DNA of 64,000 bases from Vermamoeba vermiformis (Eukaryota), in the NCBI GenBank assembly GCA_045837725.1, contig JBEWZL010000084.1, forward strand, positions 1-64,000, written 5' to 3'. A program made the position numbers and the translations under genes. The notes below the pieces were generated by a model, which saw only the letters and a list, made by a program, of their open reading frames with translations, made no database searches and was not told the origin of the DNA. Below are positions 1-54,100 of the stretch, in pieces. Numbering within the stretch: the stretch's first letter is position 1; each line of letters begins with the position of its first letter.

Positions 1-101
1 GAAAAACGCGAAAGCGTTAATGATAAATGCGAAAACTGATACTAGCATCAATTCGGGAAAAAAATCCATTTTTTTTTTTTTTCCAACTGAACGAAGTACA
101 T
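1..101 (-). other. Oxford Nanopore adapter remnant (rapid/MuA end plus sequencing-adapter motif); technical artefact
   Basis: Reverse complement of 1-36 is GTTTTCGCATTTATCATTAACGCTTTCGCGTTTTTC, near-identical to the ONT rapid adapter GTTTTCGCATTTATCGTGAAACGCTTTCGCGTTTTTC. 85-101 AACTGAACGAAGTACAT is the reverse complement of the ONT adapter ATGTACTTCGTTCAGTT. Lies distal to the telomere. Confidence 0.9.
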
Positions 102-105
102 GGCA

Positions 106-321
106 CCCAACCCTAACCCTAACCCTAACCCTAACCCTAACCCTAACCCTAACCCTAACCCTAACCCTAACCCTAACCCTAACCCTAACCCTAACCCTAA
201 CCCTAACCCTAACCCTAACCCTAACCCTAACCCTAACCCTAACCCTAACCCTAACCCTAACCCTAACCCTAACCCTAACCCCTAACCCTAACCCTAACCC
301 TAACCCTAACCCTAACCCTAA
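106..321 (+). repeat. Telomeric repeat (CCCTAA)n, about 35 units
   Basis: Perfect CCCTAA array with one CCCCTAA variant near 279; C-rich strand at contig start. Confidence 0.98.
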
Positions 322-436
322 AAGGACTGAGACTCGTGGACCTTGCCATATTATGCAAATTATCATGCAAATTATCATGCTATATTGCATGCCAATTTGC
401 ACAACATTTTACAGGCGCCCCAATCTGTTCTTGCTG

Positions 437-846
437 GGGCGTAGTTTTGAGGACTACACCCTCGTTCCGTCTGGCAAGGGCGTAGTTTTGAGGACTACAC
501 CCTCGTTCTGTCTCACAAGGGCATAGTTTTGAGGACTACACCCTCGTTCTGTCTCACTAGGGCGTAGTTTTGAGGACTACACCCTCGTTCCATCTGGCAA
601 GGGCGTAGTTTTGAGGACTACACCCTCGTTCTGTCTCACAAGGGCGTAGTTTCGAGGACTACACCCTCATTCTGTCTCGCAAGGGCGTAGTTTTGAGGAC
701 TACACCCTCGTTCCGTCTGGCAAGGGCGTAGTTTCGAGGACTACACCCTCGTTCCATCTCGCAAGGGTGTAGTTTCGAGGACTACACCCTCGTTCTGTCT
801 CGCAAGGGCGTAGTTTTGAGGACTACGCCCCCAGTCTGATTTACAA
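437..846 (+). repeat. Subtelomeric 41-bp tandem repeat, about 10 copies
   Basis: Unit GGGCGTAGTTTTGAGGACTACACCCTCGTTCYRTCTSRCAA starts at 437, 478, 519, 560, 601, 642, 683, 724, 765 and 806; the last copy is degenerate. Confidence 0.95.
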
Positions 847-919
847 GGGTGTTTTTGGTCCTGTAGAACGCATAACCCTAAACTGCAGTAACCTAATATA
901 TACTATAAAGATTGACGAA

Positions 920-1796
920 GTGTGGAGTTATTGGTCAGTTTCTAAAGTTGATGCCAGATCCATACCTGAATTACCAGAGGTCAACCTATTTAAACTCTGG
1001 TTAAAGTGCAGGATTGTGGGAGTTCAATTTGAATTTGTGTCCAAGTGCATAGACTTCACCAAACAGGATACAGAGCAATCTCTAGAGGGGTTTAATGGGG
1101 ATTGTCTGCAAAAGTGCACTGATGTAAGTTACCTTCCTTGTTGCAATGTATTTGGCCTATTCATTATTAGATCACTTCTTGGGGAAGGAGCTGGCCATTG
1201 TGTTAAAGAAAGCCATGGTATTCCAGCTGTCTACAGGAGGCTTTTTTGGCATTTGTCATGCCAATTCTTTGATGCAGAGCCCTATCAAGGACGTGGTGAA
1301 TTTGGTTTTTAAATTGTTTGAATCCAATGAGTGTCTGCTGCTGTTGGAGGCTGACCAGTTCAGAAACTTTGCTTGAGTGTGAAAACTCAAACAAGACCCT
1401 TCATCTTTTTACTTGCTTCTTTATGCTGCCATTGAAGTGGATGATAAGTTGATTGAATGAAGTATTATGAGAACAGTTACATGCTGAAGAGGCAATTGAT
1501 GAACCTCTCCAGTGAAGTAACCAAAATGGAGTCCAAGATGCACTCTGTGTTCTTCACAAGGGGTTGGCCCTGGCCCCTGGACTCAGTGTTGTACTCTGAA
1601 ACTCTCCTGCTGGTGAATATTTGGTAGTCAAAAGCCCTAGATACTCCAGGCCCCCACACACTGGTGGTCAGCAATATGCCCCACCATTGTGTAATCTGTA
1701 AGACTAGTAGCACTTTCACTTTCAATAGGCTGCACTTGAACAGAGCAAGATTCCCTTCATTTGAGGCTTATGCAATAGCTAGACACTTCTGACCTG
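920..1796 (+). pseudogene. Decayed subtelomeric coding relic of unknown product
   Basis: Plus-strand frames are broken mostly by TGA stops (e.g. NFA*V*KLKQD, EPLQ*SNQ, SVVL*NSP); region is almost devoid of CpG. Confidence 0.45.
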
Positions 1797-24795: not shown

Positions 24796-25875
24796 GTTGT
24801 AATAAATTGTGCTTGTAATAAATGAATAAAATAACCCTTTTTCATGAACAAACTTGACGCTTGACATCCGTTCATTATTTTACAGTGCACAGTTGCAAAT
24901 TGAAGTATCTTTATTGTTGGCGAGTTGCAAGGGAGGTGGGTCATAAAGCAATAAGGGCGGTATCATATTTGTAGATTCAAAGAACTCGATCTAGACTCTC
25001 CGTTCATTACTAGTTACGGTTGAAACCATTTTTTGGGTGTCAAATTTTAACTCGGGTAAACACAAAATTACAACGCGAAGGTTACTTCATTGACTTTTAC
25101 TTTTATCTGTTGCAACAAAACCCGTGATGCGATTATTGATTATTGCTCTTGTAGTAGCCTTGGCTACGACCGGAAACGCGGACTGCATCTTGGGCAATTC
25201 TACCTTGGTTGGAAATGTTACCACAGAACTCGTCAATCCATTTTACACCATTACCTTTGACGATTTGGGATTCCCTTCCTCTGGCTGGGGCTGGATCTAT
25301 TCATCACAAGGCCCTCTTCACATAACACACGGCCAACAGAACATCACGTTGAGTGGTGAAACCTGCCGCGTCTTTAATGGTTATTCTGGATTCTACACTA
25401 CTTCGTGGTCCAGCAACAATCCTTGGCAAGGCGATACAAACGGAACTATTGGAGACTTTATGATAGTTGGCTCTGGATCAGGTGCTGGAAATTGTCTCTT
25501 CGAGGTCAGTCCACCAATCTCTGCCTTCACAATGAGACTTAGCTCTACTCCTGCTCCGTCTGTTACATATATCGAAGTTTTTGATGTGCAGGGCTCACAA
25601 ATTGATTGCATTACTTCTTTACCACTTGCCCAAGGAACGAATGGATATTCTATAGTCGGTGTCTACTCTAATACGCCGATAGGCTCGTTTTCAGCAGTAG
25701 TAGGTTCAACCGGAATAATCCAAGTCGATAATATTCAACTTCTGACGTGCTCCTCTGATTCTTTCTTTTACGGCTCTGGTTGCGTTCAAAGTGTTGTTGG
25801 ATAAAATAAAAAAATTTATTTTTTTACGAAGTTGTATGCAAGTTGTACCGAAGTTGTCGGGAAGTTGTTCAACAC

Positions 25876-30272: not shown

Positions 30273-31052
30273 CTAAAACTAACATTACAATACATTTTAA
30301 CCAAGTTCAGTACAAGTTGTGTACAACTTGCGTACAACTTCGTAAGAAAATAAATTTTTTTATTTTATCCAACAACACTTTGTTCGTAAGTCAGCATTCA
30401 ATTCACGTAATCATTTCCATCATACTAACGCTTTGATATCGATTTACTGTTAAAGTTAAAAATTCCAGAAATAGACACACTTTGTGAACAACAAAATTCA
30501 ATCAATTAATCCTTTTACCACCTTCTTCTTGCCGCTGATTAACCTCAAATTAATATACTCAGTCGACCAATGTTTGGCGGGCTCTCCCTGCAGCCAAAAT
30601 GCTACTTGTCAAAACACCGAAGGCTCCTTCAACTGCACTTGTAATCCTGGGTATTTCGGCGGTGGAATTGGAGTCGACGGATGTCAGCCCGTTCACGAAC
30701 CGATTGCAGAGGTAACTCCACAGAGTGCTGATTCTCCAGTATTGGGAGCCCCAAACACTCCAAACACACACACTCCTCAACAAACGATATTTTCTTCTTC
30801 CATTCGAATTGTATGTAATGCTTCATTAGTGGCATTGTTTATGTTAATGCTGGTTGTTGTAAACGCTTGTTGAAAAATTAAACCAGTACCGCCAATCCGA
30901 TGAACATGGCTTTTAAGTTAATATATTATTAAGGCTTGTTCGCCGTAGTTCGGCTAGTTTATTAACCGTGTACGAGTCCTAACGTCACTGGGCGAACTCC
31001 ACTAAAGTGAACAACGGCATTTCCGTACTCCATACGTATATTTATTACATTT

Positions 31053-43273: not shown

Positions 43274-45743
43274 ATGGACCCTAAAAATAATCCCTTTGAT
43301 ATTATTCAATCGTTATTTAGTCAACATCACGAGCAGAATGATCATTGGCACGTCGCCTCACACTTTGACCAATTTTTGACAAATCCGGAGCTTCTGAAAC
43401 AAGTAAGGCTACCATAATTATTAATTTAATATTCTAATAATTTATTCATAGTTACCTTTGTTAAATACAACCCCTGTCGACAAAATTCCTCCTCGATCTC
43501 TTGTCCGCTATCGCTGCATGATTCAGGATATTTTTGATCAAGAATTATTCATGGGATTATTTTATCAAGTACATAAAGAGACTGGCGAAAAGGTAAGCAG
43601 CAGAATTTAAGTTGGATCGGATCTTCCTCTAAAAACAAATTTAGGTGGTGTGCCATGGCAAGTATCAGGAGACGATTGATATTAAGGTAACAATTTAGCG
43701 TTGGTGCTTACGTTATTTAACGATTAATCAGGATGGTTACGATATTGAAGAAGGGCGCACGATGGATCGACACTCCCTGTACTGCGTTCCTGTACCTGGT
43801 GAAAACGATTGGGTCATTCAAAAAATATCCTTTATATATTATAAATCAAATGCGCGTTTGTAAGCTTATTCTCTTTAACTCGTTCATACACTCGCGGCGA
43901 GGAAATGAACACATCCAGCGCGCCTTTGACTAGCGGCACTGGCACTAAACGACGACGCGAAGACCAGGAGCAAGAAGCTGTGTCTATGAACATTGACGAG
44001 GACAAGGAGAACATCAACAATTACAACGCGAATGTCCAATCCAATCAAGCCAGCACAGCCAACGTCTCGTGCACGAACAACAATCAATTTGCACAGCCCG
44101 CGAAGAAAACTAAAACAGGTAAAATACAAATTGTATAAGCGCACTATTTTTATGCAAGGTGCTCGTGCTAATGCATTTCAAGGCACCGAAAAGTCAGCAG
44201 ACAACAAAAGCGCGGTGACTTCTGTCTTGCCCGAACTTAATTTCCCGTTGCCCGCACAAGGTCCCGCGTGTATAGTCAAGTTGTACGACAGTGACGACAA
44301 CGCATTCAAATTGAACGATGTGATCGAAGTGATTGGGGTCTTGGGCAGCACGGTGCCGGGGCCTGATGTCAACGACGACAGGTACGAGTAGCTACAATAG
44401 CTATTAATATGGCCCTATACTCGAGCTAATCCTAGCAACAGCAAGTTGATGTCCATTGAAGAAGAAATTTCACACTATCCACCTTCCAGCGTCGTGCCTC
44501 GACTTCACGCATTGACCTTCAGACACGTGACTGCAGCACCAGTGTTGGACCCGCAAGTCTTGCAACAGCCCAGCATTGAAGCACTGAGAACGCAAATCAT
44601 TCAGTTCTTGGCCAGTCAACTTCACGGAGATGTTGTCGCAGCCAGTTATTTGTTGTTGAACCTCATTTCACACGTGTAAGTGTCGGCCGTCCTCGTCATG
44701 TTATAACATCAATCTAACGCATTACTAGCTATTCACGCTCTGGAGTTTTGGCCCTTGGAAACTTCTCGTTGAATTTGGTGTCAAATGACATGCAGCTCGG
44801 TTACAAATTGAGCAAGTTGGTCGCGCAGTTGTTGCCGTACAGTCATTACCTCCCCATGACTATTGAGAACTTGAACAAGGCTCCGTTTATTCCGTACAAG
44901 AACAACGTCAGTAACAAGCTGACAGCTGGTCAGTTGCAATTGCCTGGTGGCACGCATTTGGTCATTGATGAAGCTCGGTTGGCTGCCGGTCAATTGTCAC
45001 AGATTGGTACGCGCTGAACAATATTACTTACCATTGGCTTATTACTAACACGTTGCTATTGAACAGGACTTGCTAATTTGAAGGCACTGAATGATGTCGT
45101 GTTGTGGCAAAAACTTGAATATGACTTTGAGTTCCACACATTGACGTTCAACACCGATTATCCGAGCGTCATTACCTCCACGGGCAGATCTTTGTTCTCG
45201 GTAAGCACCATGAACTTTGCTGCTACAATTTTAACTAACATATCTCCATGTCCCACAGAAGGATGGCAATTGCTGTGTCTTGCCGACTGTCGCGCCACCG
45301 TCTGGACAGAACGCTCCGGAAGTCCAAGTCAACGAACAATTTTTGGAGGTGTGTCGCACTTACTTCAGCGTGGTCAGGCAAACTGACATGAAGCCTGTCA
45401 GCGAAGAAGTCAGCAAGGTAAGGAAGAATTGTTCCTAACCCTATGAAGCTGTTGCTTACATGTCTCGTGTGCAGCACATCCAAGACCATTTCGTACAACT
45501 TCGCCAAGCTAACCCAAAGGTCACTCCTGATGATTTCCACGCCATGCTGACGATATCGCGATACGCAGCGATGAGGTAATGATTGTTCGAGTGATTGCAC
45601 GAGTGCGGATCTAATTTTGTGTTGGCAGCTTTGGCGAGACTGAATTGACTATGGAACGATTCTTGTTTGCTCGTACATTGGAGGCACAACGTACTCAACG
45701 AGTAGAGGCCTTGCCTGCTTCAAGCACCAATCAGAATAATTAA
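43274..45743 (+). CDS. MCMBP: Mini-chromosome maintenance complex-binding protein
   Basis: [28 protein letters not shown]...[45 protein letters not shown]...THLVIDE. Confidence 0.92.
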
Positions 45744-45794
45744 GAACGAAGCGCGTGTAATATAGTTTTTGCTAAATAATTTACTTTTTACAGA

Positions 45795-47324
45795 TTAATT
45801 CACAATTTGGTTGTTATCATCTCGAGGATTAGCGCTCGGAGGAGTGTACTTTGGGAGGTCTCTTTCGAGTGCTTGACGCAAGTTCACAAACGAGTTATTC
45901 CGCTTTTGCATGGACTTGAAGTACGTGATTGCCAAGCGCACATCGGTGTCAAAAAATGCATCTCGTCTCGTGAACACTATGCGCGTGATGAACGTGCCAA
46001 AGATGAATCCAAACAAGACTGACACGAGCGACATGATGGAGCCCAAGTCGGTGAGAATACGCAACAACAAGCCTGTCACAGTCTCGTCTTGAATGATCGT
46101 GACACGTGTCGTGTGCACTCGGACGGCGAGCACGAGGTAGTCGACTAATATACCCGACTCTCCTAGTCTGGTGCAGTTGAATTGGTCGCAGAGGTGATCG
46201 ACTTCATCGGGCTGCAGCGGCATGAAGTGAATGTCCGTCGGAAACCTCTCGAACTTGACTCCTTCTGCGTTATATTCAACTTCTTTACGGATATCTAGGT
46301 TGTTATAACTAGGGAGCTAATGATGAGAACGCCGGTCACAACAATATGGGTTAATCTTACGTACCCTGAAGGTCTTGTAATGTAGATTGTGCTGTTGGGA
46401 AATGGCTCGTTGACATTATTGACCCAATTCATTTCGATGAACGAGAACGGCCGCTTATATTCAGCGAATGTGTACGATGCAACATATATTAATAATTCCG
46501 CTCGTTCAGTTGTTCCGTTGAATATCCAAGGCGTTTTATCGTGAGCACCAAAAGTAACGCAAGTCGCTCGAGTAGATCTATTAAACTGGATCATTGTATC
46601 GCAGGCTTCGGCGACTATAAAAGTATTAGAAAGAGCTTTTAGCTGTTAGGTAACACCTACAGCTATTGCCGAAGTTAGTTCCTTCGCAATAATAACTCAG
46701 TTTTCTTCGCTCAATTGCAGTTTCCAAAGCAACTCCAGGAAAGTAAACCCAGGGAAAACAAACCTAGAATAGTGTCAATTAAGTGAAATAAAACAAATAT
46801 GGTGGCTTACTTGAAGCATTGGCAGTTCTAGGGCACTGTGCATCGTAGTTTCGATTGAAACGACTGGATGCGTAGCATTCCACGATGAAAAGAATGTAAG
46901 CAAGCCAAAAAATGCAATAACAAGCGAAACATATTCTGCTCTTTGTATTATATTTTTTTTGCGGCCAGTGTTGTCAACAGGCACGGGGAGGGTGCATCTC
47001 TTTCTTGCTGGCGGGAAATCGAAAAGTTAATTAACGAATATTTACTTTAATTATAATTATAATTATACAAGCACACTAACATTTATCATGGATTATCAAA
47101 ATATTGCTACACAGAACTGAAATAATTAAATAAAATTGACAATGTTCAACGTGTCAGATCGTGTCATATTTGATTTGGTATGACTTGCCTCGCTTAAGGG
47201 CTCGCTTGATAGGGTGAGCGTTGGGCGATATTTCTTCGTCATCAAATTCAGCGTCGTCATCTAGATCAACCAACGGAGTGTAACCATCCTCGGTGTTGCC
47301 GTTTAATTCTGTTGAGTTACTCAT
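45795..47324 (-). CDS. Two-TM membrane protein with large luminal loop (ENaC/PAC-like topology)
   Basis: TM1 followed by HPVVSIE...LELP; beta-rich Cys-containing loop; TM2 RILTDLGSIMSLVSVLFGFIFG. The 5' exon structure is uncertain. Confidence 0.55.
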
Positions 47325-47760
47325 GCATTCATATAAAATAAATAAATATTGTGGTTATTAATTGTTGATAAATTTCGAAATTGATTTGTTGCGCAAAAAA
47401 AAAAAAGGATCGCCGATTTCATTTTAACCTAGGTGATTCTAGAAGGCACCTAGTTTCGCTCATTCTCTATCTTTGTTTACTTTTCGAGCTAACAGTACGT
47501 CAATAACGCAGTCGTTGCATAAAATAAAGGGAGGTTTCATTTGTTTTGCAAGGAACAGCTGAAACGAAATTGCTGAGACACGTCCAAAACCATGACATGC
47601 ATCTTCGGGAAGATTCTGTAAAGCTAAGCTCCCAACCACCCTTTGGAAGATCCCAATACATGCACTCTGCCTAACACCTAACTTGATGCGCTGTCTTTCG
47701 TTTTGGTTGCAGCATGGGAGGTTAATGGATCGCCAAAAAACTATTAAAATAATAAATTAT

Positions 47761-48087
47761 TTATTTCTTAAAAGAGTAATCTCTTTCAACTTTGCATACA
47801 CGAGTAATATACCCAGCGTACCAATCTTTTTTGCCTTTGTCTTGAGCTTTTTGATGAGACGTATTCTCTTTCCATTTTGTAATAGCCTCTAACGAACTCC
47901 AATACGAGATGGTAATGCCTAGCCCGTTTTCATCTCGAGCGCTTTCAACTCCTAAATATCCTTCTTGTTGCGAAGAGAGTGTAGACATGATCTCGGCCAT
48001 AGTGTCGTATCCTTTCTTATCATTGTCCGTTCTTTGAGAAGTAAAGATTACAGAGTAGTACGGTGGCTGAGGTGTGTTTGCAAACAT
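47761..48087 (-). CDS. Antibiotic biosynthesis monooxygenase (ABM, YqjZ-like), intronless
   Basis: TPQPPYYSVIFTSQR...GYLGVESAR...GITISYWSSLEAI..WK...H..AQ..GK..WY...RVCKVERDY. Confidence 0.9.
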   Translation of the reverse strand: MFANTPQPPYYSVIFTSQRTDNDKKGYDTMAEIMSTLSSQQEGYLGVESARDENGLGITISYWSSLEAITKWKENTSHQKAQDKGKKDWYAGYITRVCKVERDYSFKK

Positions 48088-48479
48088 CTTTGTTGTTTCA
48101 CTCACTAGAAGTCAAAACCGGATATTTTTTTTTGACAGATACCCAGAGGGCGAGATCGAGAAATGCCAGGAAATGCTTTTCCGGGAAATTATTACCAGCA
48201 GAGTTGCCGCTCGAAGTAGTTGGTTGGTTATCGATTAATGGATTTGGTATTTTCGCCCAACTGTAGGGAGATGAGATATCACATTGAAATTTCTGAACTT
48301 AATACTCATCACTAAGACGGGGCATTAACTGGGGTTTATTGCGGGGGTCTCGCGGATGCTGAGGCGATTGGAGCCTAGATCGCGAGCGTAACCCCCAAAG
48401 AATGAGTGAGTGATAAGGAGCGAGTGATCGCCCCAAGAGTTAAAGAGGGTTGGTAATGAAAGTAGAATAAATGAGATGT

Positions 48480-49552
48480 TTATGAGTAGAGTGTAGCGGA
48501 TGTTGCGCTTGACAGGTTAGCGCAGCGATCCCAGAACTCGTCCGTTTGCATCGCTTGGGCCACAGTGCGTGGAACTTCGATTTTTTGAGCGAAGGAGAAG
48601 GAAATGTAGCGCCTATACGCGTCCGAAACCCAATCCCCCTGCAACTTGACCATCGTTTCCGAGACGCCTGCAAGCAGGGCACAGGTGGCCCCGCCTTTCC
48701 GCAGCGAGTGCCCTGAGTAGGGCTCGGGGGCTAGGCCCGCTAGTGAGCAGTGCATCTTGATGACTAATAAGGGATTAGTGCATGCTCGATGCAAAGGTAT
48801 GGGTGAGGAGACTCACGCTTGTTGAGGTGCGAATGCACCAGGGGTGAAATGGAGCCGCTGGGGCCGCGAAAGAGGAATAGGGAGTGGCCATAATATGGCG
48901 GGCAGAGCTCCCACATTTCCTTGATGGCGCGTACTGGGCATAAGGGATTATCGTCCATTTTTACGAGCGGGATCCACAGGTCGTAATCATTGAACTGAAT
49001 CGTCTTAGTGCGCTGCAGTGTAATGGTGATGCCTACTGACGATACTGAGAGGTTATCTGGAGACACGTGGCGGAGGCTGTCGAAATTTCGCTTGGTTTTC
49101 TGTACGAGGTTGTTGCAACGCAAGTACGACCAAAACCCAACTACTAGACAGGCCCAGAACGTTCGATGTAGGGAGGATGCTGGGTCGAGGGTATTTTTCA
49201 GCTTGAGGAGCTCCACGGGGGTCAGTGGAGCTTTACTATCGGGCCTAGATCCGCGCACACGAGCAACCCCTTTGACAGTCGTTGAGATTGCAAAGACCTT
49301 CGTCGGGTCGGGAAGGCCTTTGAGCTTGTGGAAGGTGCCGATGTGTGCCAAGTAAGAGCTAATTGATGACGCTTTGACATTATGGTTGGCGAGGTAGGCA
49401 ACGTACTGACACAGCACTTCAGTACTCGCGGGAAAGAAGGGGAGGTTAGAGATCACGCAAAAGCGGGCAAAGGCAAGGACCGCTGACTCTCTAGATTTGG
49501 TTGTGGAGTCAGCGTAAGCCTTAGATTGAAGGAATTCAACCGTGAACGACAT
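48480..49552 (-). CDS. Tyrosine recombinase, 2 exons (intron 48764-48816)
   Basis: Catalytic R (SYLRCNNL), K (RTKT), HxxR (GHSLRKGG), W (GDW), Y (AYRRY); splicing gives ...HLNK-L-IKMHC... in frame. Confidence 0.9.
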
Positions 49553-51100
49553 CGATGGGCAGGTCTGCGCAGGGCACCATGGACAGATTGTGTTCGAGCA
49601 GGGGTTCGAACTGGATTCTGGAAGCAGCATCTGCTAGCTCGTTCATGAATCCTGGGATGAACTTTGCGGTCAGATGGAAATTAAATTTCGCCGAGATCCA
49701 AAACAGATCTCGAAGCATTCGCATGATTGCCAAGGACTTGCTGGAGCCCTTGTTAATTGCTGCGACTGCTGTGAAGTTGTCGCAAGCCACCACTACATGC
49801 TTGTTGCTCCACAAATGGCCCCACGTGCGGGCGGCAAGGTAGATGCTTAAGAGCTCCTTGTCGTTGATGTGCCACGATGAGGTGACCTGGTCATGGGGCC
49901 TAATGATGAAATGGTGGTCAAAGACCGCACCACAAGCCAGGTTTGAGGCGTCTGTTACAAAGCGGCGTTCGTCCACGACCGCTTCGTCAAGCATAACAGC
50001 ATGGCCGTTCCAAGTTGAAGCGAAGTCAAGCCACCAGCGTACATCATCGCGGAAACACTGGTTAAGGTACACCGTGGTGTCGTGAGACTCCACTGAATTG
50101 ACAATGTCAATCATCCTGCGCAAGAAGGTTCTGCCGCCGCGGACCACTCTTGCTGCGAAGTTCAGCTTGCCAACCAACTTCTCGACGTCCCGTTTCGTTG
50201 ATACTGTCATGTCTTGGAACGATTGCAGCAGTGACAGTAAGTCCTTTAGCTTATCTTCAGGGACTGAGAGACGCCTGCGTTGAGTATCGACCACAATGCC
50301 TAGGAAAGTGACGACTTTGGAGGGTGGGACAACCTTTGACTCGTTGATGCAGAAGCCCAGGTCGCTGAGGCAACGGCGGAAAGACTCGAAGTCGCGGGCC
50401 GCGTTCTGGGTCACCTCCTCCTCTGAGTCTCCTACTGAGATGATTAAAAAATCGTCCACATAAGGGATGACGTGTTGCACGTTGTAGTGATGCAGGGCGA
50501 CTTTGGCGATGAAGTTAGAGATCCGCCAAAAGACATAAGGAGCTATATTGAGACCAAAACACATGCGGAGGTCAATGTAGAACTTCCCGTTCCATTCGAA
50601 GCCTTGGAGGTCCCAGTGCTCTGGTCTAATTGGCACGTGTCGAAACGCATTCTTGATGTCGAATTTGCTTAGTCTGATATGCTTATACTGACGAATGATG
50701 ACCACTGCATCGTCCACAGAGGCAATTGGAAGCGCTTTGGCTCTGTGAAGGCATTCAGTTGAGTTCCATTGGGCTTGCTGAGATCGGTGATTCGGCGCCA
50801 CTTTCCTGGCCCTTTCGAGACTGCCCCGAGGGTGTTGAGCTTTCTGGGGGTAAAGGGCACCTCCACGACGAAGCCTGCATCGATCTCCTCTTGCACCTGT
50901 GCGTTCATGAAGTCGTAGCACTCTTTGACAGAACTGTAGTTGGCCACTCTTGAAGGTGGCACGGTGACGTCGGGGCCAACTATAGAAAGACCACCCCCTG
51001 GGCGAAATAGCTCCCACATGAACTCCCTGTCAGGGTCGTTGTGGAGGTACTTCTCCCAAGTGGACAGTTTCGACGTCACCGAGCTTACGGGGGCTTTAAT
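49536..51100 (-). pseudogene. Reverse transcriptase + RNase H (DIRS-type), 1-nt frameshift near 50725
   Basis: KWRRITDLS in one frame; SKFDIKNAFRHVPI, MCFGL..AP, YVDDF, FLGI, LVGKLNF, VTDAS, HINDKEL, CDN, ADAASR in the next. Confidence 0.88.
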
Positions 51101-54100
51101 CTCTATGCCCAGTTGCCCCCAGGCGCCCTGTGAAGAACTCTGGCCGGGCTGGTCTTTTGGGGGCTCGTTCGAGCGGCACTTAGTCGCTGGGTGGCCCAGT
51201 TTCGAAGACGTAGAGCATCGATGGACGTACTGGCAGGAGTCACCTCTTCTGCATTGGTCTTTGTTGAAGTTGTGACAAGTCTCACCTCCTTGTGTTGGTG
51301 AGCGCCTTTTGACGCCTGCTCCTGAGTAGTCGTAGCTAGGTGGTTTGTTCTGCAAGTGAATGCGCTCAAGCTCGGGGGGACGAATAGTCCAAGAGCGCTT
51401 GGGGTCCAGCTCCATCTCGATCCGGAAAGCTTCGTCATAAACCATGATCGATTCCCAAATGTGGTTAGCGCGTAATTTTAGGATCCAGCGAACGTATCCA
51501 ATGTAATCAATGAAATCAGAGTCAGTCATACCAGCTTCGCGGAAACGGTCTCCTGCGCGCATGCGGCTTCGAAATACTCCGCTGCAAACGGGAAAGGGGC
51601 TTGCTGGATATCCTTATATCCTTTGCGAAGGGCGTCATCAGTCAATAGGCATGGTGCCCAGAACTGGTATTTCTTCTTCGTGACGGATGGCAAGGTGATC
51701 GGCATCCGTGCTGATATCGGGGCTGCGTTGACTTGGGCATCGTCGTCCTGTGGGATGATGATGTACTGGATCGACTGTTGCGGCGCGGGGGTGTGGTTCG
51801 AGCTGGAAGATGGATCTGCTTGGAGATCCCGATTTGGGATCGTCTGATCTCCCAGAGTTGAGCCTGTCCGGAGGGAAGGATTCGAAAGCAATTTGTCCAC
51901 CCCACGAACCAAATTCTCTGATGCTGTTGATGTTCTTGTCGCGCGCTGCTTCGCTGGGTGATGGACCAATGTTGCGAGATCCATTGCTTGGAGCGGTCGA
52001 TGCGGTATCCTGTGAGGTACGGGGCGTCAAAACGGACTGGATCATTGAGGGGAGTGACTGCAGAGGCAGCAGCGAATCAAGAAGTTTCTTCAGCAACTCT
52101 GCCTGGTTTAGATCCGATGCCCTGAAAAAAATAATTCCCATGCTGGAGCTCCTCGCGCACATGGGACCGCCATGGAGCGGTTATTTTAACGATAGTAGCG
52201 AACAGACCACCATGGGTCCGTTCAAAAGTAATGTATTTTTAATGCTTCCATCGCGACCAAGAGGCGATGGAACGGAAATCGAGGAGAAATTTAGCGAGAT
52301 GGAGATGGCCAACGGATCGTAGGTATTTTTGCTTGTATATAATTTTTAATAAGAAATATTATTTATATGTTAATAACGAACACGTCTTATGTAATTTATA
52401 ACAATAAATAAAAGATTTTTAGAAAAATTCGGATTTGACTTACATTGATATATTATAACTTGAAGTAATGAAATTTGTTGTTAATATAACGTAATACAAT
52501 TAAACATATGCTAATTTTATTCAATTTTAATAGAGAAATATCCCGGCACAAATCCCGACACGATCGCGACACTTGCAAATGCTAGTGGCCCGTTAGCACG
52601 ATCTGTGCATCTAAAAACATGAATGGATCAGTAACGAAGACTCAGGCGAGTCCAAAATGGTAAGTTTTTACGTGACAGAGATCAGATCAAGATGAACGAG
52701 TATTTTTCTTCGTCATGCAAGCCGTGGACTCTCAGGGGCAACTAAACGCGTTAACTTATCATTAATTGTTTATTTTTAGTGATAATTAAACGGAAAACAT
52801 AGTTGGAGTGCTTGCTTGAAAACGGATCGACGATCCACGATCCAATTTTCTTCATCAGAATAACGAAACTACAGAACTCTTCTGGTATGTAAAAGAATAT
52901 ATATATATTATAGCATATATATGATATTCGTTTTAATAGTTAAAATCAAGGTCATGAGATCTGACGATGTAGTCCCCGATCTGGTCTTAGTTAAACGAAG
53001 TCCCTGGTGGCTCCGCGGTAAATCAATATTCTTTGATTATTATACTCATATTAATGCTTAATTTATTTAGGAACATTCGTGGTCACCCCAGGTACAAAAT
53101 GAAAAAAGTTTGGTCCCGTTTTCTCCGCGTCACGAACAACACTTGGGCTCGTATCAACAAGGTAGGTTATTTATTAAAGTTTATTAATGAATTGATCAAA
53201 ATCGATTTTTTATAATTTTTGTTAAGCGATCGCTTGACAAGATGTACGTTATTGAAGATCCAGTAAATCTTCAGACCCATCGGATCAAACAATAAATATT
53301 TAAAGGTAAGTTTATTTAATATATTAAACAAATTTGTTAGATTATAATACATATTAATATTTTCGAGTTCTTAGATCGTCATACAAAAAAATGAAGTTCG
53401 AAGTTGCCAACAGTTAATTTAGAAAGTGCGATGTCCCGAGCACCACAAAAGTCCTATTTCTTCCAACACCTGAGTCCTGGTTCATCATTATGAGGTCATT
53501 GTCGCGTATGGACTGAACGAGAGAGTGCACTAGCATCCTTGCAAGCTTCAATCTGGCCGAAATATTTGTAAGTCACTTGTTGGTCGCTACACTGCCAACA
53601 GTTAATTTAGAAATTACTTTATATATTTATATTTCCATTATACAACACATACTATCAATTTCCAAGTTTGTTTATTTGTCAAGTTTGTACAATCCGAATT
53701 TTTAATATTCTCGTTTGCAATCAATTATTAGACTACGCCATAAACTGTTACTAGAATATTATTACTATGATATAAAATTAATATTACAATTTTTGGCATC
53801 AACGTAACGTTCAAATTTGTAGGTCTTGATTAGATTCGTTCGGCGATAGGTCGCAGCACTGCTCCTTGTGTTGTAAGGTAGGTATGATTACGCTTTAGTA
53901 TATAAATACTAATACATTTCCATAGGATGGTACCATTAGTTGCAATACGATCTCCTGCTTGAGAATCAAGATCCGATCAATTACTTGTCTCGCTAAGATG
54001 AACAGCAACGAGCATGCGCCGCAGAGTAAGTGCAATTTCTTATTGTTATTGACACAGTACTGATGTTAATTATTAGCTTTCCAAAGAAACGTTAGTCCGA

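Follow-up and report, generated by a model that had tools for sequence, protein, structure and literature searches.

The window, i.e., the whole 64,000-nt stretch of Vermamoeba vermiformis DNA that was analyzed, carries a copy of a tyrosine recombinase (YR) retrotransposon. The explanation that best fits the observations, and that we consider probable, is that this copy is defective, that its recombinase gene is split by a genuine 53-nt intron of the U2 type, and that the copies of its clade descend from templates that contained the intron and were in practice unspliced. Such an element would combine two known kinds, a YR retrotransposon and a retroelement that retains an intron.

A defective retrotransposon copy in the subtelomere

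The element is subtelomeric, with a (CCCTAA)n chromosome end ~48 kb away, and has a GC content of 0.51-0.55 over positions 48500-52000 versus 0.33-0.48 in its flanks (Table 1). It encodes a gag-like ORF, an RT/RNase H and a YR in this order on one strand. The ORFs overlap, with the YR ORF starting 17 nt ahead of the RT stop. A methyltransferase (MT) domain is absent, and a Pfam search of the window element gave no match to one at E ≤ 0.1.

Table 1. Features of the retroelement copy and of its recombinase gene, in window coordinates
Feature	Position	Strand	Basis or remark
Retroelement copy, approximate extent ~3.9 kb	48300..52190	-	GC-richer than flanks
Upstream ORF (~174 aa from first ATG) or 5' leader	51641..52162	-	ORF map
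Gag-like frame, weak CCCH zinc finger (codons ~51283-51221)	50672..51613	-	zf_CCCH_4
RT/RNase H ORF, 497 aa stop-to-stop	49539..51029	-	RVT_1 ~50690-50292, RNase H ~49958-49620
1-nt deletion versus relatives, RT frame shifted	50721..50727 (near 50724)	-	Frame switch
YR exon 1, 245 codons + 1 nt, N-terminal SAM-like DNA-binding domain	48817..49552	-	ORF map, alignment
Catalytic residues in exon 1	Arg 49120-49118, Lys 49006-49004	-	Alignment of homologues
Predicted intron, 53 nt, phase 1, GT-AG	48764..48816	-	Host-like signals, conserved position
YR exon 2, 2 nt + 93 codons	48483..48763	-	Stop at 48482-48480
Catalytic residues in exon 2	His 48710-48708, Arg 48701-48699, Trp 48632-48630, Tyr 48608-48606	-	Alignment of homologues
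AATAAA, candidate polyadenylation signal	48335..48340	-	~140 nt past YR stop, near 3' end of GC-rich block

The RVT_1 domain (E 3.3e-14, 53.5 bits, cut-off 29.6) and the RT_RNaseH domain (E 1.6e-05, 25.5 bits, cut-off 24.8) are located directly upstream of the YR gene on the same strand, which bears out the retroelement context proposed in the preliminary description. The RT has 178 homologues at E ≤ 0.001, the best of which is 93% identical. Relatives at 52-93% identity carry intact RT/RNase H ORFs of 449-524 aa, and reverse transcription is therefore under selection in those lineages. The window copy reads ...RFQLPLWTMQ in one frame at the RT lesion and ...IASVDDAV in the next. The same point is continuous in all six relatives fetched, five of which (P0022, P0023, P0024, P0027 and P0038) read ...FQF[AE]S[VI]D[DN]A.... 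Judged by this 1-nt deletion, the window copy of the retroelement is defective.

The gag-like frame continues into the first RT motifs and is cut short by the RT frameshift. Toward its C-terminus it can be aligned to the N-terminal end of relatives' RT ORFs, and its zf_CCCH_4 match (E 0.0005, 20.5 bits) does not reach the cut-off of 29. The upstream ORF matches no Pfam family at E ≤ 0.1. A second intron joining this ORF (52162-51641) to the gag-like frame was considered and rejected, since the sole candidates have weak signals. At the other end of the element, the AATAAA may act as a polyadenylation signal.

The ends of the element are approximate because terminal repeats were not found. A repeat search and a blastn comparison at word size 7 returned no split direct repeats (A1 ... 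B1 A2 B2) joining the element ends, and the score of the direct local alignment between 5' and 3' regions was reached in 99 of 200 shuffles. Inverted terminal repeats are likewise missing from the ends, with an alignment score that was reached in 12/200 shuffles. The window copy may be truncated. Contigs from the X1 DNA break near the element ends (48336-48361 and 52149-52187). Short stretches resembling the two ends (48295-48396 and 52120-52187) are also present at other places in the genome, where the AT-rich sequences on either side are unrelated. As for copy number, k-mer depth in this genome is 385-425 over the element versus 485-516 over its flanks; by this measure the element is single-copy there. 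Both the RT defect and the absent terminal repeats had escaped the preliminary description.

The element resembles Ngaro, of the DIRS order, in having a gag-like gene, RT/RNase H and a Cre-like YR on one strand, with overlapping ORFs and no MT. An excerpt of PMC13465315 describes Ngaro as lacking MT and as found in fungi. The split direct repeats that define Ngaro were not found in the window copy, however, and the YR gene of the window element differs in having a spliceosomal intron. Two other assignments were rejected. A DIRS1-like element does not fit a copy with neither inverted terminal repeats nor an MT domain, and a Crypton DNA transposon does not fit an RT/RNase H directly upstream of the YR on the same strand, both here and in relatives.

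A 53-nt segment at a conserved position in the recombinase gene

The YR ORF begins with MSFTVEFLQSK at 49552 and reaches ...PLVHSHLNK, with exon 1 ending in ...CTC AAC AAG C at 48817. In the unspliced reading, a stop inside the segment closes the frame (289-aa stop-to-stop ORF, 48764..49633), and exon 2 lies in a different frame (ORF 48480..48812). The ORF was said to end before its HxxR motif, and this is the case: the stop falls inside the segment and the part with HxxR is in the other frame. The segment opens with GTGAGT (48816-48811), carries ACTAAT 11 nt before its 3' end and closes with a TTAG ending at 48764, exactly as had been described, coordinates included. ACTAAT is a candidate branch point. 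Joining 49552-48817 to 48763-48480 yields 339 codons with one terminal stop and no internal stop, and the spliced junction reads ...HSHLNK/LIKMHCSLAGL, with GHSLRKGGAT further on. Removal of the segment restores the frame, as claimed, and the product is collinear and gap-free against uninterrupted homologues. Pfam matches of the YR exons to Phage_int_SAM_4/5 are weak and below the cut-off.

The proposed resemblance to host introns also holds, in size and in signals. The host gene at 43990-45383 on the plus strand gives one ORF of 407-409 aa after removal of three GT-AG segments. These inferred introns are 54 (or 60), 53 and 60 nt long and have a CTAAY box near each 3' end. A host-intron-like pattern matches the window 43 times, mostly at lengths of 44-90 nt, versus 10.6 ± 3.1 times in 100 dinucleotide shuffles. 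The 5' sites of the 43 matches are GTAAGT (26), GTACGT (11), GTGCGT (3) and GTGAGT (3), so the GTGAGT of the segment is a minority site in the window. On the sense strand of the element, the 53-nt segment is the one match versus 0.195 expected over ~3.9 kb (~5e-5 per position), and at least one chance match arises on this strand in ~18% of shuffles. The match to the splice pattern alone is weak evidence; what counts is the exact position at the gap-free junction.

A protein search with exon 1 returned 16 relatives (P0001-P0016), and a profile search of 1.84 billion representatives returned 20,986 homologues at E ≤ 0.001. The 14 closest relatives (P0001-P0014, 50-99% identical) are all interrupted right after the residues aligned to LNK. 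In an alignment of 47 rows (the window and 46 homologues), each of the 15 close-clade rows, i.e., the window and P0001-P0014, breaks or carries an insert after LN[KDEG], whereas all 32 other rows are continuous at the junction codon. The junction LNK/LIK aligns gap-free to the continuous P0015 and P0016 and to 30 further continuous rows. Among 29 distant metagenomic loci (23-48% identical), which served solely as an outgroup, 12 have a tblastn match to P0016, and in 10 of these a single HSP crosses the junction. A profile search of genome contigs with the family alignment gave no loci.

The insert itself varies. It contains a stop in nine of the 14 relatives, within 2-22 codons. In P0005, P0006, P0009, P0010 and the cluster member P0300, it is in frame and 18 residues long (54 nt) and is followed by IK[LR][HQ]C...GHSLRKGGAT. 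Mean pairwise identity among these five variants is 0.74 in exon 1 and 0.79 in exon 2 versus 0.26 in the insert core. The exons are constrained at the protein level and the insert is not, which is the signature expected of an intron removed before translation. The in-frame insert of the five is free of stops, and read-through is possible in principle.

Splice sites and intron lengths of the close relatives were inferred from read-through translations, not from DNA. In 14/14 relatives the first read-through codon encodes R, S or C, which can end in GT, and the next residue is E, K or T, as a GT[GA]AG or GTAC start predicts. The last two codons of the insert fit NNA-G/TC, i.e., an AG end, in 5/5 in-frame variants. 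P0292, P0293 and P0294 belong to one 90% cluster and are nearly identical in exon 1, with frame-changing indels confined to the tail. P0004 (with a stop) and P0300 (in frame) also fall together in a 90% cluster. Separate exon-2 ORFs occur in three lineages (P0142, 99% identical; P0143, 82%; P0144/P0301, 62-63%), and all of them keep HSLRKGG and GDWVSDAY. The contig of P0143 is of the same length (4192) as that of P0002. The preliminary description had called the segment a canonical spliceosomal intron, and the comparison supports this strongly: the position recurs in 15/15 close-clade rows, and the insert diverges where the exons are conserved.

Public gene models P0003, P0011 and P0292 (JGI or NCBI) stop inside the insert and are not spliced. 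The JGI model P0017 has a different end (...PLVQLTAEQT) and speaks neither for nor against a splice.

Catalytic residues, history and sequencing reads

The residues R-K-H-R-W-Y form the catalytic set of tyrosine recombinases, and their roles are known from the literature on Cre. Across 117 homologues, R145, K185 and H264 never vary (numbering of P0015), and conservation is at least 90% at R267, W290 and Y298. The window has all six, and there the intron separates R and K from H, R, W and Y. The family profile matches Cre with E 3e-9. We see the two-domain Cre/integrase fold in a structure model of the relative P0015 (48-49% identical to the window protein; pLDDT 93, pTM 0.84), not in one of the window protein; an earlier model from a 7-sequence alignment (pLDDT 48.6) was discarded. 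Cre chains are the top matches of the P0015 model (~330 columns, TM 0.71-0.78, E 8e-13). Cre of phage P1 is thus the closest solved fold to this model and has the same R-K-H-R-W-Y set, but identity is 17-21%, and the window element differs in its eukaryotic retroelement context and its intron. The junction lies four residues into the helix 240-253 of the P0015 model, just ahead of the helix that bears the His. The protein made from an unspliced message would lack four of the six catalytic residues. The in-frame read-through of 18 residues would, according to the model, break a helix of the catalytic domain.

In a tree built from exon-1 columns only, the 15 interrupted rows and four continuous ones (P0015, P0016, P0020 and P0147) make up a well-supported clade of 19 (SH-aLRT 99). 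At least two state changes are needed on this tree, and a single clade of all interrupted rows is not rejected (AU p 0.217). As judged from the alignment and the tree, the intron is a derived trait of a single sub-clade. In P0015 it may have been lost secondarily, as copying of spliced RNA would bring about; the continuous relatives come in part from run assemblies that might be RNA.

Several observations on contigs bear on amplification. P0292 (exon-1 ORF), P0301 (exon-2 ORF) and P0037 (RT) are each identical on eight contigs and have the same longest contig. P0006 is found on six contigs, identical ORFs of relatives recur on 2-8 contigs, and several relatives are on contigs of 1-5.5 kb, about the size of the element. 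The interruption seems to survive amplification, although the eight contigs could be eight assemblies and not copies in one genome.

A search for sequencing runs that contain the stretch returned no RNA run. RNA runs X8, X9 and X10, which carry the same species label, have 5, 0 and 10 reads, respectively, on 8.8 kb at 95-99% likeness. Depth is zero on the YR gene (48504-49679) and almost zero on an intron-bearing host control gene as well, and there are no joints. The X1 DNA contigs have no differences from the window in this region; this agreement is not independent, as the assembly may itself derive from X1. Neither an intron-less joint nor an excision product occurs in the X1 contigs, and contigs can miss rare forms.

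Intron retention and its meaning

We infer that splicing removes the intron in vivo, that the template is unspliced RNA and that splicing also serves regulation. Translation of unspliced RNA would yield 262 aa that include the DNA-binding domain, Arg and Lys but lack His, Arg, Trp and the Tyr nucleophile. This truncated product would at most bind DNA and would be catalytically dead, and active Cre-like recombinase would come from spliced RNA alone. The interruption is kept down to ~50% protein identity and through apparent amplification, so new copies would normally arise from an intron-containing template. Reverse transcription of the unspliced full-length RNA would pass on the intron. Splicing would divide the RNA into two pools, one serving as template and as gag-RT messenger and the other as recombinase messenger, and this division would limit the amount of recombinase made.

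Splicing could even be a built-in switch, in which unspliced RNA is the sole template, a minor spliced pool gives the active enzyme, and spliced RNA is barred from reverse transcription. We put this forward tentatively and think it somewhat more likely to be wrong than right. One way to exclude spliced RNA might be nonsense-mediated decay, set off because an exon junction follows the RT stop; another might be cis-preference of the RT. A counterpoint is that copied spliced RNA should give intronless forms, yet such forms have not taken over. Retention of the intron across a diverged family, with perhaps eight identical copies, is compatible with both mechanisms offered in the preliminary description, one in which unspliced RNA alone is copied and splicing gates the recombinase, the other in which the element would spread partly as DNA.

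Spread as DNA by the recombinase itself is the main rival. The intron would then be real, and the family would move largely by Crypton-like excision and reintegration, by recombination or by segmental duplication, with no RNA step. YR enzymes can excise and integrate, the intron is kept through divergence and apparent amplification, and we speculate that the look-alikes of the element ends could be footprints of such events. We nevertheless judge this improbable, as the same lineages keep RT/RNase H ORFs intact at 52-93% identity, RVT_1 lies upstream of the YR within one protein in four of six long, more distant homologues, and the X1 contigs hold no excision product or joint, rare forms of which they can miss. 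An explanation that needs no special retention mechanism is that the intron-bearing sequences are immobile, either vertically inherited relics or a domesticated gene. The single copy in the window's own genome agrees with this. Against it, the RT frame is broken in the window copy but intact in a relative 93% identical to it, unlike what selection on a host gene would give; GC differs from the flanks and the site is subtelomeric; relatives are found, as repeats are, on contigs of 1-5.5 kb and as identical ORFs on 2-8 contigs; and gag, RT and YR are all retained. Immobility therefore strikes us as very unlikely.

We give the least credence of all to the idea that there is no intron, and consider it scarcely believable that the 53 nt are a lesion or insertion in a dead gene, or are crossed by ribosomal frameshifting or bypass, with GT...AG arising by chance. 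The pattern does appear somewhere on the sense strand in ~18% of shuffles, and spliced RNA was not seen in X8-X10, which had almost no reads even on host genes. Yet the position is nucleotide-exact relative to gap-free homologues, and 14/14 close relatives are interrupted at the same codon by inserts of variable length and content that conserve the GT start. Exon 2 is 62-99% conserved where the insert holds stops, and host introns share the size and signals of the segment. A genuine intron transmitted through unspliced templates remains the reading that we prefer.

Copying through RNA is expected to strip an element of its introns. Penelope-like elements are retroelements that likewise keep spliceosomal introns, and an excerpt of PMC4209133 presents them as exceptional among retroelements in this respect. 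They differ in belonging to a telomerase-like RT clade, in their GIY-YIG endonuclease and target-primed integration and in having no YR, whereas the intron of the window element lies within the gene equivalent to an integrase and splits its catalytic residues. Spliced LTR retrotransposons and retroviruses use splicing to keep RNA for translation apart from RNA for replication, as we suppose the window element does. For BARE, an excerpt of PMC3735527 describes distinct RNA pools and a subgenomic RNA made by splicing. These elements have a DDE integrase, however, and use splicing to raise Gag or to make env, whereas in the window element splicing would be needed for the recombinase itself. Ogre is a further spliced LTR retrotransposon. 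Cryptons have a related YR enzyme and often contain introns but lack the RT/RNase H that the window element and its relatives possess. Intron-rich Crypton variants are discussed in an excerpt of PMC13465315. According to Dumesic 2013, cited in an excerpt of PMC6643885, spliceosomes that stall on the transcripts of transposons feed into RNAi in at least one basidiomycete yeast, and the intron may therefore also be a liability for the element.

Neither "intron" nor "splic" occurs in the DIRS/Ngaro surveys PMC3783388 and PMC3266345. No DIRS/Ngaro recombinase gene is reported to have an intron in the full-text literature searched; the scope of this literature does not extend to Goodwin & Poulter 2004 and Poulter & Butler 2015, and an earlier description is possible. 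In public annotations and in the output of gene callers, these recombinases are split or truncated, with the closest models ending inside the intron. Surveys of intact YR ORFs will therefore miss or misjudge the clade.

One argument that YR elements such as Cryptons move as DNA has been that they contain introns. An RT-encoding YR clade that keeps an intron in its recombinase gene weakens this argument. In replication of the DIRS/Ngaro type, the mechanism of which is poorly known, the intron also offers a natural way to tell which RNA undergoes reverse transcription. The arrangement suggests host splicing as a control of recombinase dosage. The open surveys checked describe no introns in tyrosine recombinase retrotransposons; if splicing does act as a switch, the clade as a whole would make retrovirus-like use of host splicing in elements of this kind.

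Coding capacity of the element

The retrotransposon copy encodes a reverse transcriptase (RT) ORF that has lost one base relative to related RT ORFs, so a full RT could not be made from this copy. In the comparison with relatives, the ORF is intact in P0022, a related RT that is 93% identical to that of the window. Upstream of the gag-like frame lies a further ORF that is separated from it by three stops, and the GT...AG candidates able to join the two are all weak. Two readings apply to this upstream ORF: a 5' leader, or a first ORF of unknown function.

Features of the element and of the chromosome end
Feature	Position	Strand	Remarks
Telomeric repeat region	70-330		(CCCTAA)n
Tandem repeat	355-928		41-nt unit, ~10 copies, after (CCCTAA)n
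Deletion in RT ORF	about 50721-50727	minus	1 base, relative to related RT ORFs
Upstream ORF	51641-52162	minus	~174 aa; no Pfam family found

Chromosomal position and element ends

A repeat search of the window identified a chromosome end at its start, with (CCCTAA)n from about 106 to 320, which places the element ~48 kb from the telomere. Short variants of both element ends (48295-48396 and 52120-52187) occur at other genomic places in contigs of the DNA sequencing run X1. They have a depth of ~276-309 and unrelated, AT-rich flanks, and could be what is left of other copies, or footprints.

The window also carries a pair of 93-nt inverted repeats (25780-25872 and 30297-30389) that are 85% complementary and enclose 4.4 kb. 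The pair is possibly the sign of a terminal-inverted-repeat DNA transposon.

DNA contigs, RNA runs and gene models around the recombinase intron

The X1 contigs break exactly at the 5' splice site of the intron with a 30-nt overlap (48811-48840), which means a branch in the assembly graph at either 48810 or 48841. Depth is slightly higher in the 3' piece (425 versus 385). The RNA sequencing runs X8-X10 contributed 0-10 reads over positions 43800-52600, every one with 95-99% similarity. Their species label is identical to that of the DNA run, and they scarcely match even the host genes in this region. The RNA probably comes from a strain or species other than that of the assembly.

Public gene models (JGI or NCBI) of related elements (proteins P0003, P0011, P0292, and P0017) terminate within the intron or deviate close by. 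As a consequence, annotation presents the recombinase as truncated hypothetical proteins.
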